Source: Escherichia coli
GTDB lineage: Bacteria > Pseudomonadota > Gammaproteobacteria > Enterobacterales > Enterobacteriaceae
Assembly (NCBI RefSeq): GCF_044324875.1
Contig: NZ_CP172185.1
DNA length: 64,000 nt
Strand: one strand, 5' to 3'
Positions 4,952-60,651 of this stretch are shown in pieces (within the stretch, counting starts at the first letter, position 1; each line of letters starts with the position of its first letter). Under the pieces are notes generated by a model. It saw nothing but the letters and a program-made list of their open reading frames with translations. It ran no database searches and was not told the origin of the DNA. A program made the translations under genes and the position numbers.

Positions 4952-5002
4952 TTATCCTTTGTGTCCGGCAAAAACATCCCTTCAGCCGGAGCATAGAGAT
5001 TA

Positions 5003-11030: not shown

Positions 11031-11951
11031 ATGACGAATCTACCCAAGTTCTCCACCGCACTGCTTCATCCGCGTTATTGGTTAACCTGGTTGGGTATTG
11101 GCGTACTTTGGTTAGTCGTGCAATTGCCCTACCCGGTTATCTACCGCCTCGGTTGTGGATTAGGAAAACTGGCGTTACGTTTTATGAAACGACGCGCAAA
11201 AATTGTGCATCGCAACCTGGAACTGTGCTTCCCGGAAATGAGCGAACAAGAACGCCGTAAAATGGTGGTGAAGAATTTCGAATCCGTTGGCATGGGACTG
11301 ATGGAAACTGGCATGGCGTGGTTCTGGCCGGACCGCAGAATAGCCCGCTGGACGGAAGTGATCGGCATGGAACACATTCGTGACGTGCAGGCGCAAAAAC
11401 GCGGCATCCTGTTAGTTGGCATCCATTTTCTGACACTGGAGCTGGGTGCGCGGCAGTTTGGTATGCAGGAACCGGGGATTGGCGTTTACCGCCCGAACGA
11501 TAATCCACTGATTGACTGGCTACAAACCTGGGGCCGTTTGCGCTCAAATAAATCGATGCTCGACCGCAAAGATTTAAAAGGCATGATTAAAGCCCTGAAA
11601 AAAGGCGAAGTGGTCTGGTACGCACCGGATCATGATTACGGCCCGCGCTCAAGCGTTTTCGTCCCGTTGTTTGCCGTTGAGCAGGCTGCGACCACGACCG
11701 GAACCTGGATGCTGGCACGGATGTCCGGCGCATGTCTGGTGCCCTTCGTTCCACGCCGTAAGCCAGATGGCAAAGGGTATCAGTTGATTATGCTGCCGCC
11801 AGAGTGTTCTCCGCCGCTGGATGATGCCGAAACCACCGCCGCGTGGATGAACAAAGTGGTCGAAAAATGCATCATGATGGCACCAGAGCAGTATATGTGG
11901 TTACACCGTCGCTTTAAAACACGCCCGGAAGGCGTTCCTTCACGCTATTAA
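11031..11951 (+). CDS. lpxL: lipid A biosynthesis lauroyltransferase
   Basis: Internal ATG of ORF 10968-11951 gives [24 protein letters not shown]..., 306 aa. Confidence 0.93.
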
Positions 11952-12122
11952 ATCTCCCATGCCGGATGCTTCAGAAGGGTATCCGGCATTACCACAGCAA
12001 ATCCCCCTGATTTAGCGATAAAAGCTCTCTGGATTGCGCCCCCTGGAAGTCGGGCGCATAATTAGTGTGCTTATCTTTTCTTCTTATGTTCACCGCGCCT
12101 GGCGCACCAACAGCGGATTGCT

Positions 12123-34607: not shown

Positions 34608-34825
34608 AAGTGAAATCCTTAAGTGCAAAATGGCATCTGAATCGATCGCAGTTTGGCATTCGAATCGATCATGATTTGGCATCCATCTCCGATCACAGTT
34701 TGGCATCACAATCGATCACGATTTGGCATGCTTCCGATCATTGATTGGCATCCTGCCAGTCACTCCGGGAATTAACTCTTTTCACCACAGTCTCCATTGC
34801 CGTGTTTAAACCAGTGGAGACGTCA

Positions 34826-36391
34826 ATGTCCAGAAAGAGAAAATCCAGGAGCACTATGGAAACCTGTTTTAAGATCCTTCAGCTCAAGTTCGACAAGAAG
34901 CTGACTAACCGTTGTATCGGACTGACGTTACACATCAGCGCCTCAACCGTTTTTGAGGTTCTTGCCCGCTTCAAAGCCTCTTCTCTGTCATGGCCATTAC
35001 CTGCTGATATATCCCATGACACGCTGGAGAAACTCATTTTTCCGCCCAAAGACACCTTTGCATCAGAGCTTGTAATGCCTGACATGTTGTACTTCGATAC
35101 GGAAATGAGAAAACCAGGTGTGACGCGGCAACTGTTGTGGATGGAATACAAGGCACAGGCGGGTAACAAAGCGATGGGATACTCGCACTTCTGCCGTTGC
35201 TACCGGGAGTGGAAAAAAACGCGACGTCTCTCCATGCGCCAGGAGCATCGTGCCGGCGAAAAGCTTTTTATCGACTTCTGTGGTCCTACGGTTCCTGTTA
35301 TTAATCCGGACACCGGTGAGATACGCCGCGTGGCAATCTTCGTGGCCGTAATGGGGGCGTCCAACTATACCTACGTTGAAGCGTGCGAAGGTCAGGACAT
35401 GATGTCATGGTTAAATGCCCACAGCCGTTGCCTGACCTTCCTGGGCGGCGTACCGAAGCTGCTCATCCCCGATAACCTCAGAAGCGCAGTGAAAAAGGCC
35501 GATCGATATGAGCCTGTCATCAACGACAGTTATCAGGCACTGGCTGAGCACTATGGCACGGTTATCATCCCGGCCCGACCACGCAAACCTAAAGATAAAC
35601 CAAAAGCAGAAAACGGCGTCCTCATCGTTGAACGATGGCTTCTTGCCCGCATCCGTAATGAAACCTTCCACACGCTCAGGGCGCTGAATGCGCGCCTTAG
35701 GGAGTTACTGACAGACATGAATAACCGGCCAATGAAGGGGTACGGCAATCAAACCCGTGCAGAACGCTTCCGCATACTGGATGCGCCAGCACTCTCTCCG
35801 CTGCCTCTGGCACCTTATGAATACACGGAATACAAAGCTGTGAAGGTTGGCCCTGACTACCACGTTGAATATGCCCGTCACTGGTACTCCGTTCCACACG
35901 AACTGGTCGGTCAGCGTCTGTCACTGAAGGCGGGGCAGTCGGTGGTACAGCTCTGGCACAAGGGGCAGTGTGTGGCGCAACATCCGCGCAGCACACATGA
36001 ATATAAACACACAACCAATCCGCTTCACATGCCAGAGCGCCACCGGCAGCACGGGACATGGACACCGGAACGCCTGATCGAGCAGGGAAAACGTACGGGC
36101 CCGTCCACAGGCCGGGTGGTTGAATCCATGCTGAAGGCAAAACCCCATCCGGAACTGGCTTATCGTGCAGTTCTGGGGCTGCTGGCACTTCAGAAAAAAT
36201 ACGGCCCGGAACGGCTGGAAAAGGCCTGTTACGTTGCCCTGCACTATAACGCCCCTGACAGACGCTTTATCGACAATCTGCTGCGTCACCATCGGGAGAA
36301 CCTGGAGCTTCCATTATCCCGCCAGGGCGAACAACATCCGGCATATGCTTCAGAGCATGAAAACCTGCGTGGTCCGGGCTACTACCACTGA
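34826..36391 (+). CDS. istA: IS21-family transposase IstA
   Basis: Internal ATG of ORF 34745-36391 (MSRKRKSRSTMETCFKILQLKFDKK...) preceded by GGAGA; HTH plus DDE integrase core. Confidence 0.85.
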   Translation: MSRKRKSRSTMETCFKILQLKFDKKLTNRCIGLTLHISASTVFEVLARFKASSLSWPLPADISHDTLEKLIFPPKDTFASELVMPDMLYFDTEMRKPGVTRQLLWMEYKAQAGNKAMGYSHFCRCYREWKKTRRLSMRQEHRAGEKLFIDFCGPTVPVINPDTGEIRRVAIFVAVMGASNYTYVEACEGQDMMSWLNAHSRCLTFLGGVPKLLIPDNLRSAVKKADRYEPVINDSYQALAEHYGTVIIPARPRKPKDKPKAENGVLIVERWLLARIRNETFHTLRALNARLRELLTDMNNRPMKGYGNQTRAERFRILDAPALSPLPLAPYEYTEYKAVKVGPDYHVEYARHWYSVPHELVGQRLSLKAGQSVVQLWHKGQCVAQHPRSTHEYKHTTNPLHMPERHRQHGTWTPERLIEQGKRTGPSTGRVVESMLKAKPHPELAYRAVLGLLALQKKYGPERLEKACYVALHYNAPDRRFIDNLLRHHRENLELPLSRQGEQHPAYASEHENLRGPGYYH

Positions 36392-36407
36392 CAGAAGGAA
36401 CAACAGT

Positions 36408-37163
36408 ATGAGTGATAACCTGTTAAACAAACTGACCCAACTGAAACTCCCGGCGATGGCCGGGAGCCTGATACGGCAGCGGGAAACGCCTCAGACCTAC
36501 GACGAACTGTCGTTCGAGGAAAGGCTGACGCTGCTGGTTGATGACGAGCTTCTGAGCAGGGAAAACAGCCGTGTGGCACGGTTGAGAAAAAATGCCGGCC
36601 TGAAATACCAGGCAACACCGGAAGGGCTGCGCTATCCGGCCTCAAGAGGTCTGCGGGCTGAACAGATGAGAGAACTGCTGAACGGCCACTACATAACCCA
36701 CAGGAAAAACCTGCTGATAACCGGTCCGACAGGATGTGGCAAGAGCTGGATAGCCAATGCGCTGGGCGAACAGGCATGTCGACAGAAACACAGCGTCCGG
36801 TACTGTAGAACCGGGCGATTACTGGAACAACTGGCTCAGGGACGTGTTGATGGCAGCTGGCTGAAATATCTGAAACAGTTGCAAAAAATACAGGTTCTAA
36901 TCCTGGACGATCTGGGGCTGGAACAGTTAAGTAACGCCCAGTGTAATGACCTTCTGGAGCTCATAGAGGATCGTTACGGACAAAGCAGCACGATAGTGGT
37001 AAGCCAGTTCCCGGTAGATAAATGGCATGGTCTGATGGAGAACCCAACAACAGCAGATGCCATCCTGGACAGACTGGTACATAACTCACACCGAGTGGTC
37101 CTTCAGGGAGAGTCACTGAGGAAAAATCCCCCGGTAGTGGAAAGCAGCGAAAAAACGCGTTAA
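36408..37163 (+). CDS. istB: IS21-family helper ATPase IstB
   Basis: Internal ATG of ORF 36165-37163 (MSDNLLNKLTQLKLPAMAG...); Walker A GPTGCGKS. Confidence 0.85.
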   Translation: MSDNLLNKLTQLKLPAMAGSLIRQRETPQTYDELSFEERLTLLVDDELLSRENSRVARLRKNAGLKYQATPEGLRYPASRGLRAEQMRELLNGHYITHRKNLLITGPTGCGKSWIANALGEQACRQKHSVRYCRTGRLLEQLAQGRVDGSWLKYLKQLQKIQVLILDDLGLEQLSNAQCNDLLELIEDRYGQSSTIVVSQFPVDKWHGLMENPTTADAILDRLVHNSHRVVLQGESLRKNPPVVESSEKTR

Positions 37164-37262
37164 AAAGCGGTAGAAAAAGTTAAGTTCCCGGTTGATCGAA
37201 TGGATGCGAATCGCTGATCGGACTTCGATGCCAATCCGTGATCGAATAGAGCGGAATACGCA

Positions 37263-50234: not shown

Positions 50235-50912
50235 ATGTCAGAAATTGCCCTGAGTCTTAATGATGTTCATGTTGTTTATACCAGAAGCAGACAGGTCGTG
50301 TTACAGGGTTTTTCAATGTCCGTTCATAAAGGTGAACTTGTATGTCTGCTTGGCGTTTCAGGTTGTGGAAAAACAACCGTATTACGAACTGTAGCAGGCC
50401 TGGAACGATTACAACAAGGTGAAATATTCATATCACAACGCTGTGTAGCCGGAGCCGGAATTCATCTCCCCCCGGAAAAGCGCAGGGTCGGAATGGTCTT
50501 TCAGGAATATGCTCTGTTTCCCCACCTGACAGTAACACAAAATGTAGCCTTTGGTCTGCGCCATCTGCCTTATGAACTACAGCATGCCAGAGTCACTGAA
50601 CTTCTGAAAATGGTTGAATTATTATCCTGTGCAAAGCGCTATCCTCATGAACTCTCAGGTGGACAGCAACAACGTATTGCACTTGCCAGAGCACTGGCCC
50701 CGGCCCCTGATATTTTGTTACTGGATGAGCCATTTTCCAGTCTGGATAAACAAACCAGTGAATACCTAGTGAAAGAAGTACGGGACCTGTTACGTAGTTC
50801 AGGTCAGACAGCCCTGATCGTTACTCATAATGAATCAGAAGCACTCGAAATATCAAACCGTATTTGTATCATGACGGAGGGTAATATAAGTTCGGTTCAG
50901 TCTGTGGTCTGA
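50235..50912 (+). CDS. afuC: ABC transporter ATP-binding protein (AfuC/FbpC-like), possibly lacking a C-terminal regulatory domain
   Basis: 225-aa ORF with Walker A GVSGCGKTT, signature LSGGQQQR, Walker B ILLLDEPFSSLD; ends right after the NBD. Confidence 0.75.
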   Translation: MSEIALSLNDVHVVYTRSRQVVLQGFSMSVHKGELVCLLGVSGCGKTTVLRTVAGLERLQQGEIFISQRCVAGAGIHLPPEKRRVGMVFQEYALFPHLTVTQNVAFGLRHLPYELQHARVTELLKMVELLSCAKRYPHELSGGQQQRIALARALAPAPDILLLDEPFSSLDKQTSEYLVKEVRDLLRSSGQTALIVTHNESEALEISNRICIMTEGNISSVQSVV

Positions 50913-51720
50913 GACGTAACCGCACATTCAGGATCCCCTGTTCGTCATGGAAGCTGTATTATGTAACTATATGGAGGCATAGCAGATATTGTTGAAGAAA
51001 TACATCAAAAACACTCACATTTCTGGTACAACAGGAGTTGTAGATTTAATGATTATTGGGACGAAGTTACTACAGAAAAGCTGTACCGGGAACAGGTATG
51101 GTAGTTCCTTGTCACGTGTGGATTAAATGAGCATAATGCAGATCAATTACAAAAGGCATTTCGTAATAGCTCTGTTGTTGATTCGGTTACCATGATGGCT
51201 GTGGCAAGAGCCACCATGTGACTATACATGATATAATTATTTGTGTGATGTTGTTATACCTGAACAACAGGCATGAGATAATGGAAAAAATTATACATAT
51301 AACTCGGCTTTCCCATACTCCACTACAGAACAGTATATGATTCTGAACATTTCAATCCAGGCGCATTACATAACTATATTACATGTAACTATCTGGCCCT
51401 CAAATCATCGAGAGAATTGTTTAAAGTCAGCAGTCATAATCTGAATATAGATCATTATCACATAATTTAATTCTTAATTCACTACATTTTCCCTTGAATC
51501 CGGTATAATAAGACAGAGCACATGGCTGATGCTTTGTTTCGGTGTGGATAATCTGGTGGCGTCGGCTATGTGCTCTCAACAGTTAACTTATTATGAATAC
51601 TATTATCAATACAGGTTTTACATAAAAAAATAAAAAGCATCTCCTGATATCAGCCCAGTCTCTTTGGGCTAACCAGAATTATACATAAGCTATGCAGATA
51701 TTAATTTGCATACAAAACCA

Positions 51721-52203
51721 TTATTTTCTTGAGCACACTATACTAATGTATCCCAGAAGAGGTCCTGTGCATAATCCTGTTGCTGCCCATAATACAGCAA
51801 GTGAAATATCAGGACCATCTGTATCCGGATAAAATCCTCCATAATAAACAGCAAATACAGTAGAGTATGCATTGAATGCAGGTAAACTACTGTTCATGCA
51901 CGGTATCTGAAGGAGTAAAAGAAGAACATACACTGTTATTATTACTGATATAATGATTGCCAACATGGCAGAAATGTGCAGGGATATCATGTAATTTATA
52001 GCAGCAATACATAACACAGACGTTGCTATACCGGGAAGTAATGAAGCATAAATTTTCTTTAATATGTCAGGCGTCGCTCCCAGAGCATAGTACCATGCCC
52101 AGCCAATAAATATAGCCCACACAGGAATATTAATCCCCGGCCATGAAGCCAGGCATGACATCCCTGCTAACAGGGCTATGGTAAGATTCATCGGTAATTT
52201 CAT
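51721..52203 (-). CDS. hypothetical polytopic membrane protein (DUF1097/YcdZ-like by composition)
   Basis: 160-aa hydrophobic ORF last in the carboxylase gene string; resemblance to YcdZ is by eye only. Confidence 0.45.
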   Translation of the reverse strand: MKLPMNLTIALLAGMSCLASWPGINIPVWAIFIGWAWYYALGATPDILKKIYASLLPGIATSVLCIAAINYMISLHISAMLAIIISVIITVYVLLLLLQIPCMNSSLPAFNAYSTVFAVYYGGFYPDTDGPDISLAVLWAATGLCTGPLLGYISIVCSRK

Positions 52204-52217
52204 TTCAGACGCACCTG

Positions 52218-53204
52218 TTATGAGCCATAAGATAATGAATTAATGAGAAGGTTGAGTCTTTCATTAAATTCTTTACGGATTTCCAGAGCTTTATCCATAC
52301 TGACTTGTGAAAATGTCACACTGGAGCCGGGTGCAAGTTGAGCCAGAATATCGAGATCAGTACTCACTACTGTCCCCACTGTCATATATCCCCCTCCTGA
52401 TACAGCATCCCTGTGCAAAACTATTGGTGTGCTTCCAGAGGGAACCTGAATTGATCCCACGGGATAACAGGCATCAACGATATTTGATGGATCTGAACCA
52501 GCACCAAATGGCGGGTGCCGATCAACAAAATTAAGTGAGCGCCCTCCCTGAAACCTGAAACCTGTTCTGTCTGAATCCTTACTGATCTTCCATACATCAT
52601 CAAAAAAACTTTCAACTGATTCCTGTTTCAGGCGATGGATATACATTCCGGGTACAACACGTAATTCATTTTCTTTAGTAAAAACTGGACGTAACTCATC
52701 TGGCAGAGTGTAATTTATACGCCCTTTATTACATATTGCTTCCTGTACGGGTAATTCATCTCCGGCCTGTAACCGACGTCCTTTATAACCACCAAGACTG
52801 CCAAGGAGGTAAGTAGAACGACTTCCGGCAATAACAGGGACATTAATACCTCCCGCGATGGCAAGGTAACAGCGTACACCCACCGTGGTGTATGCGATTT
52901 TTAATATCTGTCCTTTCCGGGCTAACAGGGATGTATTCACCGGAACACTCTGATTATCCAGGGTCACCGTAAAAGGGGCACCGCTGACTGCAAAAAGAGT
53001 ATCCTGCTCAAACAAGAGTTCGGGCCCCAGTAATGTGCATTCCAGCGCTGCATCAAACGGGTGATTACCGACAAGCAAATTGGCGGTAACTAACCCTGTA
53101 CGATCTAATGCACCGGATGGCGGGATCCCGAGATGATAAAAGCCTTCTCGTCCTCCGTCCTGAACGGACGTGGATAATCCGGGCGTCAATACTTTAATTC
53201 CCAT
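52218..53204 (-). CDS. KipA/PxpC-family protein (allophanate hydrolase subunit 2-type carboxyltransferase domain)
   Basis: ORF 52218-53252; internal start MGIKVLTPGLSTSVQDGGREGFYHLGIPPSGALD... Confidence 0.8.
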   Translation of the reverse strand: MGIKVLTPGLSTSVQDGGREGFYHLGIPPSGALDRTGLVTANLLVGNHPFDAALECTLLGPELLFEQDTLFAVSGAPFTVTLDNQSVPVNTSLLARKGQILKIAYTTVGVRCYLAIAGGINVPVIAGSRSTYLLGSLGGYKGRRLQAGDELPVQEAICNKGRINYTLPDELRPVFTKENELRVVPGMYIHRLKQESVESFFDDVWKISKDSDRTGFRFQGGRSLNFVDRHPPFGAGSDPSNIVDACYPVGSIQVPSGSTPIVLHRDAVSGGGYMTVGTVVSTDLDILAQLAPGSSVTFSQVSMDKALEIRKEFNERLNLLINSLSYGS

Positions 53205-54078
53205 ACAGTTCTCCCAGTAAATTTTTAGTATAATCTTCAGGATTTTCTTCAAATGCGTTCAAATCAAAATTTACAGGCCTGATAAGTAATTCAAAATTAC
53301 CAGATTCCACATCACTTATACATTGATTATATTGTTCAGTATTGATCGCCCTGAACTTAATGATGTCCCCTGCCCGGAAAAACACCATAGAGTCTTTGAA
53401 ATATGATAATTTCTGTTCTGTGTCATAAATCGGAGCTGGTGTTATACCGAACAATTGATACCCACCTGCCCCCCGGACTGGATATATAGCCCCGAAGCAC
53501 CCGCCATGACCAACAGAATGTTTTGGTGTATCAGTTCTGGGAACAAGATATTTTGGAACCTGGATTTGCTTTTTCCGGTCAACCATCTGATACATAAAAG
53601 GCAGCCCGGCAACGAAGCCAACCATAGAAACAAACCAGGGACTTGAATGATGGGCCTCAATAAACGTCTGAACATCCGGATATCCGTTTATTTCAGCAGC
53701 ATACTCAAGATCGGTTAATGCCGGGTTTTGATGATTATTCCGGAACCGCATCAGGGTTTCATGAGTCCATGGATCATTATACAATACAGGAATTTCAATT
53801 ATACGTGTCTGTAGTGTCATTTCTCCATTCCCGGAGAGCACATTAACATTTCGTATCTGTTGTAACAAATCATCAGGGTGTATAATGTCGGGATTAAATC
53901 TTATCTGACATGATGCATTTGCAAGGCAAATATCGAGCACACCATTAATATTTAATGATTCTATTTTTCTCGTAAGAGACAAGCTGTGAAAAAATGCTTT
54001 AAGAGACATTTCCTCACTGACTTCGATGAAAAGATGCTCATCAGCACCAAATGTATAGCGCAAATTTATATCAGTCAT
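53194..54078 (-). CDS. KipI/PxpB-family protein (allophanate hydrolase subunit 1-type)
   Basis: 294-aa ORF; overlaps downstream KipA-like gene by 11 bp; cyclophilin-like AHS1 pattern. Confidence 0.8.
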   Translation of the reverse strand: MTDINLRYTFGADEHLFIEVSEEMSLKAFFHSLSLTRKIESLNINGVLDICLANASCQIRFNPDIIHPDDLLQQIRNVNVLSGNGEMTLQTRIIEIPVLYNDPWTHETLMRFRNNHQNPALTDLEYAAEINGYPDVQTFIEAHHSSPWFVSMVGFVAGLPFMYQMVDRKKQIQVPKYLVPRTDTPKHSVGHGGCFGAIYPVRGAGGYQLFGITPAPIYDTEQKLSYFKDSMVFFRAGDIIKFRAINTEQYNQCISDVESGNFELLIRPVNFDLNAFEENPEDYTKNLLGELYGN

Positions 54079-54087
54079 ACAGGTTCC

Positions 54088-55449
54088 TCATTTAAATGCA
54101 CCGGTATTCAGCCAGTCTTCAAGCGTTTTATTATGAAACTGAGCATTTCTGAAAAACTCAGCTGATAATAATGCTTCATGAAGAGGTATAGTTGTATGAA
54201 CGCCTTCTATTTGCATATTACCAAGGGTCTCCCGGGCAAGACTTATCGTTTTTTCTCTGCTGTCAGTATGAATAATAAGTTTTGCCAGTAAAGAATCATA
54301 CCAGAGAGGCATCTTATACCCTTCAAACATGTGAGTATCGACTCTTATTCCCTGCCCTTCAGGTATCTGCAATACCGATATTGTTCCGGGACTGGGCATA
54401 AAACCATTGTAAGGATTTTCTGCATTAATCCTCATTTCAATTGCAGCTCCCTGTAACGTAATCTCATCCTGTCCAAACGACAGAGAGTCGCCCCCGGCAA
54501 TTCTCAGCATCCAGTCGATAATATCAATGCCTGTGACCATTTCTGTAACCGGATGTTCAACCTGAATCCGCGTATTCATTTCAATAAAAAAGAATTCCCC
54601 GCTCCGGTCATCGACCAGGTACTCAATAGTTCCTGCGCTTGAATAATTCAGCATTCTGGCGAGATTCAGTGCACTCTGACATAAGGCCTCACGTAGTGAC
54701 GCTGAAACAGAAGGCGATGGCGCTTCTTCTGTCACTTTTTGTCTTTTTCTCTGCAGAGAACACTCTCGTTCAAACAGGTGAACGATGTTTTTTCCGTCTC
54801 CAAGGATCTGAACTTCAACATGACGGGCTTCCGGTATATAACGTTCCAGATATACACCATCGTGCCCGAAAGCTGCTTTTGCTTCAGCACGCGCTACTGT
54901 ATATTCATGCACCAGCTGTTCCGGAGAATGTACAATCCGTATCCCCTTCCCGCCTCCCCCGGCCGAGGCCTTTATCAATAAAGGATATCCGGTAATATCC
55001 GATGCTACTGATAATGCCTCCTCAGGGCTTATAACCTCGCCATTTGAGCCTGGTACAACCGGGACACCTGCCTTTATCGCGCAATCTCTCGCGATTGCTT
55101 TATCCCCCATTTGCTCAATAATCTGAGGAGATGGCCCAACAAAAATAAGCCCTGCATCGAGCACCGCACGGGCAAAAGACGCATTCTCCGACAGAAAACC
55201 ATATCCGGGATGAATGGCCTGAGCGCCAGACTGAAGGGCTGCATCAATTATCTTCTTTCCGTCCAGATAACTGTCATCGGCACGGGATTTACCTATGACA
55301 ATAACTTCATCGGCGCTCTTTGCCGGAAGAGAATTGATGTCTGATTCGCTACATGCCAGCACCGTTTTTATATTCAGCTTCTTTGCACTTCGTATAATTC
55401 GTAATGCAATCTCACCTCTGTTGGCAATAAGCAGTTTTTGAATACTCAT
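54088..55449 (-). CDS. biotin carboxylase (AccC-like ATP-grasp enzyme)
   Basis: 453-aa ORF MSIQKLLIANRGEIALRIIRSAKKLNIKTV...; ATP-grasp and biotin carboxylase signatures. Confidence 0.85.
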   Translation of the reverse strand: MSIQKLLIANRGEIALRIIRSAKKLNIKTVLACSESDINSLPAKSADEVIVIGKSRADDSYLDGKKIIDAALQSGAQAIHPGYGFLSENASFARAVLDAGLIFVGPSPQIIEQMGDKAIARDCAIKAGVPVVPGSNGEVISPEEALSVASDITGYPLLIKASAGGGGKGIRIVHSPEQLVHEYTVARAEAKAAFGHDGVYLERYIPEARHVEVQILGDGKNIVHLFERECSLQRKRQKVTEEAPSPSVSASLREALCQSALNLARMLNYSSAGTIEYLVDDRSGEFFFIEMNTRIQVEHPVTEMVTGIDIIDWMLRIAGGDSLSFGQDEITLQGAAIEMRINAENPYNGFMPSPGTISVLQIPEGQGIRVDTHMFEGYKMPLWYDSLLAKLIIHTDSREKTISLARETLGNMQIEGVHTTIPLHEALLSAEFFRNAQFHNKTLEDWLNTGAFK

Positions 55450-55621
55450 GCTCAGTTCCTTATATTATTTCTATGGTAGCCAGTACCTGACCAGGTTCCA
55501 CTTCCTCCCCATTCTCCACCTTAAACTGGATAGACTGGCCCCCTGAATCTCCAGACAACCAGTATCACTTAAATAAGTGATAGTCTTAATACTAGTTTTT
55601 AGACTAGTCATTGGAGAACAG

Positions 55622-55987
55622 ATGATTGATGTCTTAGGGCCGGAGAAACGCAGACGGCGTACCACACAGGAAAAGATCGCAATTGTTCAGCAGAGCTTTG
55701 AACCGGGGATGACGGTCTCCCTCGTTGCCCGGCAACATGGTGTAGCAGCCAGCCAGTTATTTCTCTGGCGTAAGCAATACCAGGAAGGAAGTCTTACTGC
55801 TGTCGCCGCCGGAGAACAGGTTGTTCCTGCCTCTGAACTTGCTGCCGCCATGAAGCAGATTAAAGAACTCCAGCGCCTGCTCGGCAAGAAAACGATGGAA
55901 AATGAACTCCTCAAAGAAGCCGTTGAATATGGACGGGCAAAAAAGTGGATAGCGCACGCGCCCTTATTGCCCGGGGATGGGGAGTAA
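55622..55987 (+). CDS. insC: IS2 transposase OrfA (InsC)
   Basis: ATG at 55622, [41 protein letters not shown]... Confidence 0.93.
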
Positions 55988-56850
55988 GCTTAGTCAGCCG
56001 TTGTCTCCGGGTGTCGCGTGCGCAGTTGCACGTCATTCTCAGACGAACCGATGACTGGATGGATGGCCGCCGCAGTCGTCACACTGATGATACGGATGTG
56101 CTTCTCCGTATACACCATGTTATCGGAGAGCTGCCAACGTATGGTTATCGTCGGGTATGGGCGCTGCTTCGCAGACAGGCAGAACTTGATGGTATGCCTG
56201 CGATCAATGCCAAACGTGTTTACCGGATCATGCGCCAGAATGCGCTGTTGCTTGAGCGAAAACCTGCTGTACCGCCATCGAAACGGGCACATACAGGCAG
56301 AGTGGCTGTGAAAGAAAGTAATCAGCGATGGTGCTCTGACGGGTTCGAGTTCCGCTGTGATAACGGAGAAAAACTGCGAGTCACGTTCGCGCTGGACTGC
56401 TGTGACCGTGAGGCACTGCACTGGGCGGTCACTACGGGCGGCTTCAACAGTGAAACAGTACAGGACGTCATGCTGGGAGCGGTGGAACGCCGCTTCGGCA
56501 ACGAGCTTCCGGCGTCTCCAGTAGAGTGGCTGACGGATAATGGTTCATGCTACCGGGCTAATGAAACACGGCAGTTTGCCCGGATGTTGGGGCTTGAACC
56601 GAAGAGCACGGCGGTGCGGAGTCCGGAGAGTAACGGCATAGCAGAGAGCTTCGTGAAAACGATAAAGCGTGACTACATCAGTGTCATGCCCAAACCAGAC
56701 GGGTTAACGGCAGCAAAGAACCTTGCAGAGGCGTTCGAGCATTATAACGAATGGCATCCGCATAGTGCACTGGGTTATCGCTCGCCACGGGAATATCTAC
56801 GGCAGCAAGCCAGTAATGGGTTAAGTGATAACAGGTGTCTGGAAATATAG
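55945..56850 (+). CDS. insD: IS2 transposase OrfB (InsD)
   Basis: 301-aa ORF overlapping insC (frameshift fusion arrangement); DDE integrase core. Confidence 0.93.
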
Positions 56851-57058
56851 GGGCAAATCCACTGGATATTAGTCCCGGTTGTTTCAGCATGAATTTCGTT
56901 AAACTGCTTCATTATTTCAATCAACCCAATGACGGTACTCTCCTGAACAGTGTCACCATTCTCCAGAAACGGGGCACTATCAGGTGCTGGTTTCCGATAA
57001 AATACACCAGGTAAAGGTGAAAGAATTTCTGTAACAGCCATAACATCCTCCATGTATA

Positions 57059-57820
57059 TCAGTTTTGAGAATTTACACTTATGTCTGCCTCACGTAAGGC
57101 TTTATTTATTGCAATCAGAAGAGATAAGGCACCGGGCGTATCACTATGGACACAGACAGAAGAGAAATGAATGTCAATATCCTGATCTTCTACAGTACGA
57201 ACTTTTCCCTCCAGACAGGCACGCAGCACTTTTTTTGCGACATCATCAGGATTAAGAGGTTCAGTTCTCCGTATAAATACAATGGAACCGCTTTGATCAT
57301 AATCCCTGTCGGCATAAAACTCACAAATAACAGGATGTCCGATTTGCGTCGCTTCTTTCCAGATGGCACTACCATACATGCAATATATTCTCAATTCAGG
57401 CGCATAACTATGAAGCGTTGAGACAAAATGCTTTGCAGCATCCCGATCATGAGCAAGATGCATATACAACGCGCCATGAGGCTTAACATGGTTTACAGGC
57501 ACATTGTGTAATGTGGCAAATTCACGCAAGGCCCCCAGCTGATAAATCATGTCATTGGTGATTTCCTCTGCGGTGCAGTGAATATGACGCCGGCCAAAAC
57601 CAGCCAGATCACGATAACCGGGATGAGCACCGACAGACACACCACTGTCACGGGCGCTGATTATTGTACGGTGCATAATCCCCGGATCACCTGCATGAAA
57701 ACCTGTCGCTATATTCGCTGAGGAGATGTATGGCATAATATCAATATCCCGGATATCTCCGAGAGTCCATGCTCCAAAGCTTTCCCCCATATCAGAGCTG
57801 ATATCAATACTGCGAAGCAT
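57059..57820 (-). CDS. LamB/YcsF-family protein (PxpA-like lactam utilisation protein)
   Basis: ORF 57059-57868; ATG at 57820 (MLRSIDISSDMGESFGAW...) preceded by GGAGG. Confidence 0.8.
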   Translation of the reverse strand: MLRSIDISSDMGESFGAWTLGDIRDIDIMPYISSANIATGFHAGDPGIMHRTIISARDSGVSVGAHPGYRDLAGFGRRHIHCTAEEITNDMIYQLGALREFATLHNVPVNHVKPHGALYMHLAHDRDAAKHFVSTLHSYAPELRIYCMYGSAIWKEATQIGHPVICEFYADRDYDQSGSIVFIRRTEPLNPDDVAKKVLRACLEGKVRTVEDQDIDIHFSSVCVHSDTPGALSLLIAINKALREADISVNSQN

Positions 57821-57962
57821 TAAAACCTCCGTCTGACAAATACGGTAACAGTATGTCATGTAGCACATTTGTTTCTTTATTGTAAATTATTATTTTTCTA
57901 TGGTAATATATTAAATTTATTTATAATTACTGTTGCAAAAATATCTTTATCAGGAAAATTTG

Positions 57963-58898
57963 ATGAACATCACACTCAGACAGATAAAATATTTCGTATC
58001 AACAGCGGAGTCCGGATCGTTATCAACTGCAGCCAAATCACTCAATATTTCACAGTCTGCGATAACAACAGCAATTCAGGGGCTTGAAAGGGACATCGGT
58101 TATAAATTACTGATTCGCTCAAAATCTGGCGTTGATTTAACAGATGAGGGAAGACTGTTCTTATACAATGCCTACAATATTATCCGGACATATGATGAGG
58201 CAATAAATACAGTGCATGTTCAGAAGCCTTTGCATGGAACAGTTTCCATTGCGGCGACTTATACAATAATGGGATATTTTTTACCTGTTCATCTGAAACA
58301 ATTTTCAAGAATTTATCCACATATAAAGCTGGAGCTTTTTGAAAATCAAAGAAGCATTATTGAAACCGGACTTCTCAGCGGAAAATATGATATTGGGATT
58401 GTAATCAATGATAATCTGACATGTCCCGATATTGTATCAGAAACACTGTTACGGTCGGAGCGCCGTATATGGTTACCATCCGGCCACCCTCTGCTGGAAA
58501 AAGAAATTCTCTCCCTGAATGATATTGTCTCAGAGCCTTTTATTATCCTTGATGTGGATGAAGCATGGGAAACAGCAAAACGTTACTGGAATACGGCCAG
58601 TACCATGCCAGATGTAATTTTACATACGCATTCTATTGAAGCTGTACGAAGTATGGTTGCGAATGATATGGGTATAACCATTCTTTCTGACATGGTTTAT
58701 CGCCCATGGTCGCTTGAAGGGAAACGTATAGAAACACGCGCATTATCTAAATCAGAAGTTTTCCCAATGAGTATTGGCCTGGCATGGCGTAATAATGTTG
58801 AGTTTACGCCTGCAATGCAGGCTTTCATCAATTATTTCAGAAAGATTTTTATGTGTTCTCCCGGTTATCAAAACCGGAATGTTGACCACTTTATCTGA
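57963..58898 (+). CDS. LysR-family transcriptional regulator, divergent from the carboxylase operon
   Basis: ORF 57933-58898; ATG at 57963 gives MNITLRQIKYFVSTAESGSLSTAAKSLNISQSAITTAIQGLE (LysR HTH). Confidence 0.8.
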   Translation: MNITLRQIKYFVSTAESGSLSTAAKSLNISQSAITTAIQGLERDIGYKLLIRSKSGVDLTDEGRLFLYNAYNIIRTYDEAINTVHVQKPLHGTVSIAATYTIMGYFLPVHLKQFSRIYPHIKLELFENQRSIIETGLLSGKYDIGIVINDNLTCPDIVSETLLRSERRIWLPSGHPLLEKEILSLNDIVSEPFIILDVDEAWETAKRYWNTASTMPDVILHTHSIEAVRSMVANDMGITILSDMVYRPWSLEGKRIETRALSKSEVFPMSIGLAWRNNVEFTPAMQAFINYFRKIFMCSPGYQNRNVDHFI

Positions 58899-59039
58899 TG
58901 TGTTAAAGACATCACTTTATTATTACCACTATAGCTGAACTCATTGAAGATGATTAACTACTGTCTGCTCAGAGAAACGATGTAAAGTGAAATGTGAATA
59001 CTCCTGACCAGAGTGTTGTTCCCTCTGTTACCAGCCACC

Positions 59040-60497
59040 TCAGACCTTTACCAGCACCTGAGGGCAGTGATGGCGCAAACAGGTCAGAAGCGTGGCGAAA
59101 GCCTCTTCCATCTGCGCTTCCGGCAGACTCGCAAATCCCATCAACAGTCCTCTTTTACGCTGTGCTGTCAGGTAGTAAAGCGACAGCGGACGCACCAGTA
59201 TATTTTGTGCATTGGCGCTGGCCGCAACCGCAACATCATCAACATCGTCCGGTAAATTTAATATCAGATGCAGCCCGGCATTATCGCTGAAATCTGACAG
59301 TGCCTGTGTTCCACAGTGACGTTCAATCAGTTCACCAAGAAAGGCGCGACGGCGACTGTACAGTAACCGCATACGGCGAATATGAGCAGAATAATGCCCT
59401 CCGTTGATAAACTCAGCCAGTGCCATCTGGATCAGTGTATGCCCGCCACGATAAAGCTCAGCATGGGCACGTTTTAAAGCCTCTTTCAGCGGGCGCGGTA
59501 ATACCAGATAACCCAGCCTCAGTCCGGGATACACTGTCTTGCTGAAAGTACCAATATACACCACTGGTGCATCGTCAATAAGCCCCTGTAGTGCCGGAAC
59601 TGGTTGACCGGAAAAGCGAAATTCACTGTCATAATCATCTTCCACAATCCAGCTTCCATGCTGTCTGGCAAGGGCCAGCAAGCGTTGCCGTCGCTCAAGA
59701 CTCATCACCACGCCCAGAGGGTATTGATGGGATGGCGTGACGAAAATCAGCCTGGGAGGTGGCATCAGGCGTTCGGGAGGTACCAGACCACTGGCATCAA
59801 CGGCAACAGGGGTGATCTGCACAGCATTCATTGCCAGTACATGGCGTATTCCCCAGTAAGACGGCTCTTCCACCCATGCCATATCACCGGCATCTGCCAG
59901 CATGCGTGCAACAAGATCGATCGCCTGATGGATACCTTCGGTGATAAGTATCTGATCAGCCTGACAGCGTACGCCACGCGCAATCCGTAAATAATCAACC
60001 AGTGCATGCTGTAATTCCGGTGTCCCTCCGGTACAGCTATAGCTCAGCCGCTCCGGCTCAGGACGGCGACTGATACGCGCCTGAATCCTGCTGAACAGGG
60101 GGTGGGGAAAGGCACTGACATCCGGGACGCCGGGAATAAATGCCCCCCACTGGCACGGACTGGCGCTGACATGCCGGAGCAGATAATCCCCGCGGTGAGA
60201 AACAGCAGAACTCAGCCTGGCATCTTCACTTTTTTCCGTGTTACTGAACGCCATTAAGAAGGTATCAGGAGCCGTCTGTGCGACGAATGTTCCGCTTCCA
60301 CGACGTGATACCACATATCCTTCCGCCTGTAATTGTTCATAAGTTGTTAATACTGTGTTTCTTGAGATTCCAAGTTCAACTGCAAGTTCCCTGGAGGCAG
60401 GGAGACGGCTGTGCGGCGGTAAAGAGCCATCGAGAATAGCATAGCGAAGCGCATTATAGAGCCGTTTGTGCAGAAGTTTATCCTGCTCCTGACCCAT
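59040..60497 (-). CDS. MocR/GabR-type regulator (GntR HTH fused to PLP aminotransferase-like domain)
   Basis: ORF 59040-60533; N-terminal GntR HTH (RLPASRELAVELGISRNTVLTTYEQLQAEGYV) plus large fold-type I domain; start codon uncertain. Confidence 0.8.
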   Translation of the reverse strand: MGQEQDKLLHKRLYNALRYAILDGSLPPHSRLPASRELAVELGISRNTVLTTYEQLQAEGYVVSRRGSGTFVAQTAPDTFLMAFSNTEKSEDARLSSAVSHRGDYLLRHVSASPCQWGAFIPGVPDVSAFPHPLFSRIQARISRRPEPERLSYSCTGGTPELQHALVDYLRIARGVRCQADQILITEGIHQAIDLVARMLADAGDMAWVEEPSYWGIRHVLAMNAVQITPVAVDASGLVPPERLMPPPRLIFVTPSHQYPLGVVMSLERRQRLLALARQHGSWIVEDDYDSEFRFSGQPVPALQGLIDDAPVVYIGTFSKTVYPGLRLGYLVLPRPLKEALKRAHAELYRGGHTLIQMALAEFINGGHYSAHIRRMRLLYSRRRAFLGELIERHCGTQALSDFSDNAGLHLILNLPDDVDDVAVAASANAQNILVRPLSLYYLTAQRKRGLLMGFASLPEAQMEEAFATLLTCLRHHCPQVLVKV

Positions 60498-60651
60498 TCT
60501 GAACAGCAGCAGATCGCCTATGAATGCCCTCAACTGGATCCCTCAGATAATCAAAATTGGTACTCGATTATAGTGCCATCGCCTGCCTAAATAAACAACA
60601 CAGCGTCTCATTTGTTGCAGTTAAGTGACATATTTAACAGGAGAGTCGGGA

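Follow-up and report, generated by a model that had tools for sequence, protein, structure and literature searches.

IS2, a member of the IS3 family, is described as an element with a 42-bp left inverted repeat (IRL), a 41-bp right inverted repeat (IRR), an A6G frameshift site, transposition through a minicircle and the Pjunc promoter (PMC3299598). The IRR holds an outward-facing -35 hexamer that is able to form fusion promoters, as in the activations of ampC and acrEF (PMC9330008). The curated copy IS2A of E. coli K-12 MG1655 (NC_000913.3 381260-382590) is flanked by the 5-bp duplication ATTAC and splits a host gene, yaiX, in two. Activation of ampC by an IS2 fusion promoter was reportedly described by Jaurin and Normark in 1983, and polar IS2 insertions in the gal operon are said to have been described by Saedler et al. 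in 1974 and by Yarulin and Gorlenko in 1985. Among the enzymes to which the host operon can be compared, urea carboxylase (TIGR02712) is a single chain, and E. coli AccB has an N-terminal and linker region in addition to its biotinyl domain.

The window analyzed here (a stretch of 64,000 nucleotides of E. coli DNA, assembly GCF_044324875.1, contig NZ_CP172185.1) contains a single copy of IS2. With high probability, a functional-looking IS2 jumped into codon 64/65 of the biotin-carrier gene of an accessory operon, with loss of the carrier and polarity on the downstream genes. The features of the element and of the split gene are as follows:

55526..55530, no strand: left target-site duplication CTGGA, a single CTGGA in related genomes
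55531-55572: IRL, left end of IS2 (repeat length from PMC3299598)
55622..55987, plus strand: IS2 orfA (InsC/TnpA, 121 aa), protein identical to that of K-12
55945..56850, plus strand: IS2 orfB (InsD/TnpB, 301 aa), an open frame
56821-56861: IRR, right end of IS2 (repeat length from PMC3299598)
56862..56866, no strand: right target-site duplication CTGGA, a single CTGGA in related genomes
56862..57053, minus strand: 5' fragment of the carrier gene, codons 1-64 (M1..Q64), including E-I-M-K49-Q, from translation of the frame
55460..55530, minus strand: 3' fragment of the carrier gene, F65..I85 and stop, severed from its start

The element at 55531..56861 is a complete IS2 of exactly 1331 bp with its transposase genes on the plus strand. 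A first-pass annotation of this DNA had proposed a complete 1331-bp IS2, and this was borne out by the ends, the ORFs and the alignment with IS2A, which was gap-free over equal lengths with 25 substitutions (98.1% identity). The 5' end is TAGACTGGCCCCCTG (also written TAGACTGGCCCCCTGAATCTCC; short form TAGACTGGCCCCC...) and the 3' end is GGGGCAAATCCA, both termini being the same as in K-12 IS2A, and the IRL and IRR arms, aligned with each other as inverted repeats, match imperfectly with two gaps. The orfA product matched the NCBIfam model NF006928 ('IS2 repressor TnpA') with 276 bits (cut-off 229), and the orfB product matched NF006918 ('IS2 transposase TnpB') with 713 bits (cut-off 597). Moreover, the -1 frameshift site A AAA AAG (A6G) is intact at 55939-55945, corresponding to element positions 409-415, and a simulated -1 slip produced an uninterrupted OrfAB fusion. 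Judged by sequence, the element is a canonical IS2 in which all sequence requirements for transposition are intact, and the copy looks functional. It would have transposed via the copy-out/paste-in pathway of the IS3 family, through a minicircle. Like IS2A, it combines the 1331-bp length, the termini, OrfA, the A6G site and a 5-bp duplication with the splitting of a host gene; the two copies differ in the nucleotide substitutions noted above, in eight OrfB amino-acid changes, in the gene that was hit and in the duplicated sequence (CTGGA vs. ATTAC). Copies 100% identical to the window element were found in many other E. coli genomes, and IS2-like sequence was detected by megablast in 4,845 of 5,426 complete E. 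coli genomes.

The CTGGA direct repeats that the first-pass annotation had placed around IS2 are present at 55526-55530 and 56862-56866, with a single copy in relatives, and the IS2/host junction reads 5'-CCACCTTAAACTGGATAGACTGGCCCCCTG-3'. Duplications of 5 bp also accompany other copies of the element, namely ATTAC at K-12 IS2A and GTGGT and ATCAT at copies near the operon in other strains. A 5-bp match between flanks is expected by chance at about 1/1024; the support that we consider decisive for an insertion, beyond this match, is the empty site seen in the sequences of relatives. Searches with the 1.1-kb right flank and the 1.5-kb left flank against the 5,426 complete E. coli genomes returned matches to each flank in just 11 genomes. 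In all 11, the left and right matches overlap by exactly 5 bp, that is, one CTGGA without IS2, and the empty-site sequence was found in 10/10 operon-bearing loci that were fetched. Furthermore, removal in silico of IS2 and one CTGGA from window positions 46525-64000 left 16,140 bp that matched E. coli 23CRST013 (NZ_AP045773.1) with 100.000% identity and no gap. Since the IS2 insertion is the sole difference from 23CRST013 over these 16 kb, the event was a recent and simple transposition. The insertion itself is simple, flanked by the CTGGA duplication, and recent. It is a textbook case of insertional pseudogenization of an accessory gene, real but ordinary.

Excision and re-translation, which the first-pass annotation had set as a check, returned a continuous frame ending in MEDVMAVTEILSPLPGVFYRKPAPDSAPFLENGDTVQESTVIGLIEIMKQFNEIHAETTGTNIQFKVENGEEVEPGQVLATIEII*, as that annotation had written, and retention of both CTGGA copies shifted the frame. 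The restored product, encoded on the minus strand, is MEDVMAVTE...NIQ|FKVENGEEVEPGQVLATIEII* (85 aa), where the bar marks the insertion point. From M5 on, it is the annotated 81-aa protein WP_000301513.1, named 'acetyl-CoA carboxylase' in RefSeq and started at the second Met; in the public assembly collection, 4,032 blocks list this 81-aa product in intact form. Pfam PF00364 (Biotin_lipoyl) covered residues 9-82 of the restored protein at model positions 2-73 of 73 (E = 1.3e-13), a full domain that agrees with the earlier assignment of the target as a small biotinyl-domain gene. The restored protein also passes the cut-off of the small carriers named 'acetyl-CoA carboxylase' in NCBIfam NF005457 (121 bits, cut-off 87). 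Its alignment with the E. coli AccB biotinyl domain (1BDO, AccB residues 83-156) was gap-free, with about 40% identity over 74 residues, and the motif E-I-M-K49-Q aligned with the biotinylated E-A-M-K122-M of AccB. The M and K of this motif are invariant across 36 homologues, and in an AlphaFold model the biotinyl lysine lies between strands 37-43 and 46-51. In contrast to AccB, the restored carrier is a stand-alone domain of 81-85 aa that lacks the N-terminal and linker region, and its gene sits with genes for CT_A_B and CT_C_D subunits rather than with those for AccA and AccD. These comparisons indicate that the small protein is a stand-alone biotin carrier domain, for which biotinylation is predicted.

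In the window, IS2 cuts this gene after Q64 (Q60 in RefSeq numbering). The frame of the 5' fragment runs into IS2 for 28 foreign codons and reaches a stop at 56777..56775, giving a chimeric ORF at 57053..56775 of 92 aa, composed of 64 native residues and 28 IS2-coded residues that are unrelated to the carrier and rich in Cys and Arg. The truncated carrier retains the biotinyl-lysine hairpin and spans only positions 1-61 of 80 in the NF005457 profile. The 21 of 85 residues that are lost include an invariant Gly and the motif PGQV(L/I)A, which is conserved among the 36 homologues, and they form the last two beta-strands (67-69 and 74-79) in the AlphaFold model (pLDDT 89.4). According to Athappilly and Hendrickson (1995), the N- and C-terminal strands of the biotinyl domain (1BDO) reportedly pair in one barrel, so a C-terminal truncation is expected to abolish both folding and recognition by BirA. 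The truncated domain therefore likely cannot fold or be biotinylated, which would leave the carboxylase without its carrier. The earlier suggestion that the carboxylase is likely inactive in this strain is reasonable and fits the loss of a quarter of the domain. A start within IS2 that would allow the C-terminal fragment to be translated was considered as well and rejected, as no ATG or GTG lies in frame after the last stop.

The split gene is the second of an operon on the minus strand, in the order pxpA-like gene, carrier, biotin carboxylase, CT_C_D, CT_A_B and DUF1097. Its other genes and the divergent regulator are listed below:

57059..57868, minus strand: pxpA-like gene (LamB/YcsF), first gene of the operon, upstream of IS2; RefSeq start 57820
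54088..55449, minus strand: biotin carboxylase gene (AccC-like, 453 aa; NF009471), intact, first gene downstream of IS2
53194..54078, minus strand: gene for a PxpB-family / CT_C_D carboxyltransferase subunit (294 aa; Pfam PF02682), intact
52218..53252, minus strand: gene for a PxpC-family / CT_A_B 'biotin-dependent carboxyltransferase' subunit (Pfam PF02626), intact
51721..52203, minus strand: gene for a DUF1097 membrane protein, last in the operon (Pfam PF06496 and annotation)
57933..58898, plus strand: divergent LysR-family regulator gene; RefSeq start at about 57963

The biotin carboxylase scored 703.7 bits with NCBIfam NF009471 (cut-off 686) and is identical in the empty-site genomes. The CT_A_B protein matched TIGR00724 with 265.9 bits (cut-off 230.2), and alignment with the urea carboxylase model placed this protein at positions 438-767 and the CT_C_D protein at positions 804-1079. 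The Pfam assignments PF02626 and PF02682 come from identical loci. A biotin carboxylase, a carrier, a CT_A_B protein and a CT_C_D protein are thus encoded together, the combination that marks a multi-subunit enzyme of urea-carboxylase type; the domain set is that of the single-chain urea carboxylase, split here into separate subunits. As in PxpABC 5-oxoprolinase, a PxpA-family gene is part of the system, and in the window it heads the operon; its product matched the PxpA subfamily model NF003814 with 278.6 bits (cut-off 226). The match to PxpABC 5-oxoprolinase ends there, with only the PxpA subfamily model passing: the PxpB-like protein scored 73.1 bits with the equivalog TIGR00370 (cut-off 145.55), and the PxpC-like protein scored 223.3 bits with the equivalog NF045499 (cut-off 500). 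Taken together, the profile matches indicate that the most likely product of the operon is a multi-subunit biotin-dependent carboxylase of urea-carboxylase type, plus a PxpA-family protein. The RefSeq name of the PxpC-like protein alternates across genomes between '5-oxoprolinase subunit C family protein' and 'biotin-dependent carboxyltransferase family protein'. A literature search on the function of clusters of the pxpA-accB-accC-pxpB-pxpC type found no characterization, and when the whole window was scanned with Rfam, neither a riboswitch nor a leader turned up near the operon as a hint at the substrate.

The insertion may also affect genes beyond the carrier. Operon transcripts would enter IS2 at the IRR and read the transposase genes in antisense. 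Between the stop of the chimeric ORF and the start of the biotin carboxylase gene, about 1.3 kb remains untranslated, with 6-21 stops per frame, and the antisense IS2 RNA is rich in C, the C/G ratio exceeding 1.3 in 35 of 97 windows; in the adjacent biotin carboxylase gene, 2 of 99 windows exceed this value. An RNA of about 1.3 kb that is both untranslated and C-rich should be a good Rho substrate. Rho would then terminate transcripts inside the antisense IS2 RNA, so that the four downstream genes (biotin carboxylase, both CT genes and DUF1097) would be subject to polarity and under-expressed, whereas the pxpA-like gene (57868..57059), which lies upstream of IS2 and is unaffected by the insertion, would still be expressed. 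Transcription entering at the TGGATTTGCC end, as in the window, is what we take to be the strongly polar 'orientation I' (Ghosal numbering). In the gal-operon insertions, IS2 likewise lies within an operon and parts upstream from downstream genes, and Rho-dependent polarity would be expected here too. We infer that Rho-dependent polarity on the downstream genes is likely. The first-pass annotation had suggested that the insertion may be polar on the upstream-to-downstream order of the operon; the polarity is a reasonable expectation from an untranslated, C-rich antisense RNA without an outward promoter, while the direction needed clarification, since the operon runs on the minus strand and the exposed genes lie at lower coordinates (55449 down to 51721).

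A consensus scan for promoters and terminators over 55300-58000 gave nothing above the shuffle expectation (5 promoter-like sites vs. 4.5 expected), with no promoter leading out of the IRL and none from either IS2 end toward host genes. A fusion promoter at the IRR was considered and rejected, as the flanking sequence C-TGGATA provides no suitable -10 at the 17-bp spacing, the scan showed no plus-strand site there, and such a promoter would point antisense to the operon. Because the outward -35 hexamer in the IRR points away from the downstream genes, no compensating fusion promoter is expected. The element and its IRR with an outward -35 are the same as in the ampC and acrEF cases; in contrast to those cases, the IRR in the window faces the 5' gene fragment and the pxpA-like gene in antisense, and activation would not be expected.

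Two other readings of the insertion were weighed against the loss of the carrier combined with polarity. It is very improbable that the IS2 is an artefact of assembly or propagation, for instance through the false joining of two IS2 copies or as the state of a minority subpopulation. In favor of this reading, IS elements are a frequent source of assembly errors, the allele with IS2 appears in none of the complete RefSeq E. coli genomes, and the chimeric ORF is unrecorded in the assembly collection, where both the 92-aa form and the 88-aa form from the second Met were looked up; this absence may just reflect gene callers skipping such an ORF. Against an artefact, the 5-bp repeats match and the flanks are contiguous in relatives, which argues against IS2-IS2 recombination or a mis-join. 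Moreover, the independent draft contig DBGYFX010000125.1 (GCA_049006665.1; L013) is 100% identical to window 56866-64000 and terminates at 56866, within the duplication. A short-read assembly would be expected to break in this way at the edge of an IS, and the break is consistent with the same IS2 allele in that strain.

A somewhat less remote reading, although still improbable, is that the insertion is functionally mild, with the truncated carrier or the AccB domain shuttling carboxybiotin and with downstream transcription sufficient for the enzyme. The break falls downstream of the EIMKQ biotinyl-lysine motif, the biotinyl domain of the housekeeping AccB, with about 40% identity, might in principle serve in trans, and the biotin carboxylase gene comes with an AAGGAA ribosome-binding site of its own. 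Between IS2 and this gene, the native DNA holds a weak promoter-like site (minus strand, 55493..55464) from which the downstream genes could be transcribed to some extent; however, it belongs to the class found at chance frequency in the scan. For the carrier itself, the loss of 21/85 residues with two beta-strands and conserved motifs, and their replacement by 28 unrelated Cys- and Arg-rich residues, speak against residual function, as does the barrel architecture that 1BDO is said to have, in which a truncated C-terminus would be expected to prevent folding and BirA recognition. In a preprint, a KipA/PxpC homologue was found to bind the biotin of a heterologous BCCP domain (bioRxiv 10.1101/2025.10.28.685139); this would leave room for a carrier acting in trans, and by analogy it also fits the small protein being the carrier of this carboxylase. 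On balance, loss of the carrier with polarity downstream is the preferred reading.

A wider interpretation is that the operon neighborhood is a recurrent target of IS inactivation or modulation in E. coli, pointing to selection against, or switching of, a horizontally acquired carboxylase. Its grounds are the IS2 in the carrier gene, the contig break at the same base, contigs that end at codon 49, an IS in pxpA and further IS2 copies nearby; we consider it unlikely.

Several other loci with this operon carry IS elements or breaks. In other E. coli strains, IS2 lies beside the same operon (L009 2822-4152, L011 2822-4152 and L012 2757-4087), where it separates the LysR gene from the MocR-like regulator gene. 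Both orientations occur, with the duplications GTGGT and ATCAT, and at least two of these insertions are independent. The L012 locus has a second IS2 copy at 11164-12246, downstream of the DUF1097 gene. In GCA_013421655.1 (L006 4383-5983), a DDE_Tnp_1 transposase gene (402 aa) lies directly upstream of a truncated pxpA (131 vs. 253 aa), which suggests another IS disruption of the same operon. Contigs in GCA_047762675.1 and SRR8502380 (L014 and L015) end after carrier codon 49. In CP158450.1 (L007) and JAQRHE010000001.1 (L010), many genes of the locus are broken up into short ORFs or the biotin carboxylase falls into two pieces of 401 and 42 aa, which looks like sequencing-error frameshifts rather than biology.

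For annotation, a single pseudogene interrupted by IS2 is the proper label for the two fragments together with the 92-aa chimeric ORF, and the strain should not be listed as having a functional copy of the accessory carboxylase. Together with 23CRST013, it forms a natural near-isogenic pair that could be used to seek the substrate and role of the operon. Knowledge of IS2, of biotin enzymes and of E. coli is left unchanged by the finding.

The operon lies on a genomic island (window 29941-64000) that starts beside a tRNA-Ser(GGA) gene (29941-30028), next to ghrA. Its GC content is about 43-44%, compared with 53% for IS2, and the locus is rare, its flanks being present in just 11 of the 5,426 complete genomes. 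The island holds CP4-like genes (CbtA/YeeU toxin-antitoxin, RadC and antirestriction), an Ag43 gene that is a pseudogene in the annotation of relatives, ISEc8, an ABC transporter, a MocR/PdxR-like regulator, a GABA-type transaminase and an aromatic amino-acid transporter. A second insertion that is private to the strain relative to 23CRST013 is an IS21-family element of about 2.63 kb at window 34618-37262, located intergenically, with the antirestriction gene of the island on one side and its DUF932 gene on the other. It encodes an IstA-like protein (34745-36391; NF033546, 284 bits) and an IstB-like protein (within 36165-37163; NF038214, 257 bits), and the direct repeat CTTAAGTG borders the element on both sides (34618-34625 and 37255-37262). 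In addition, four Rfam matches at gathering level, all unrelated to the IS2 insertion, were recorded in the window: an IS102 RNA in the island (44845-45041, minus strand), the ES056 sRNA (24250-24341, plus strand), the ES036/CssrF sRNA (14110-14152, plus strand) and a PyrC leader (4953-5002, plus strand).
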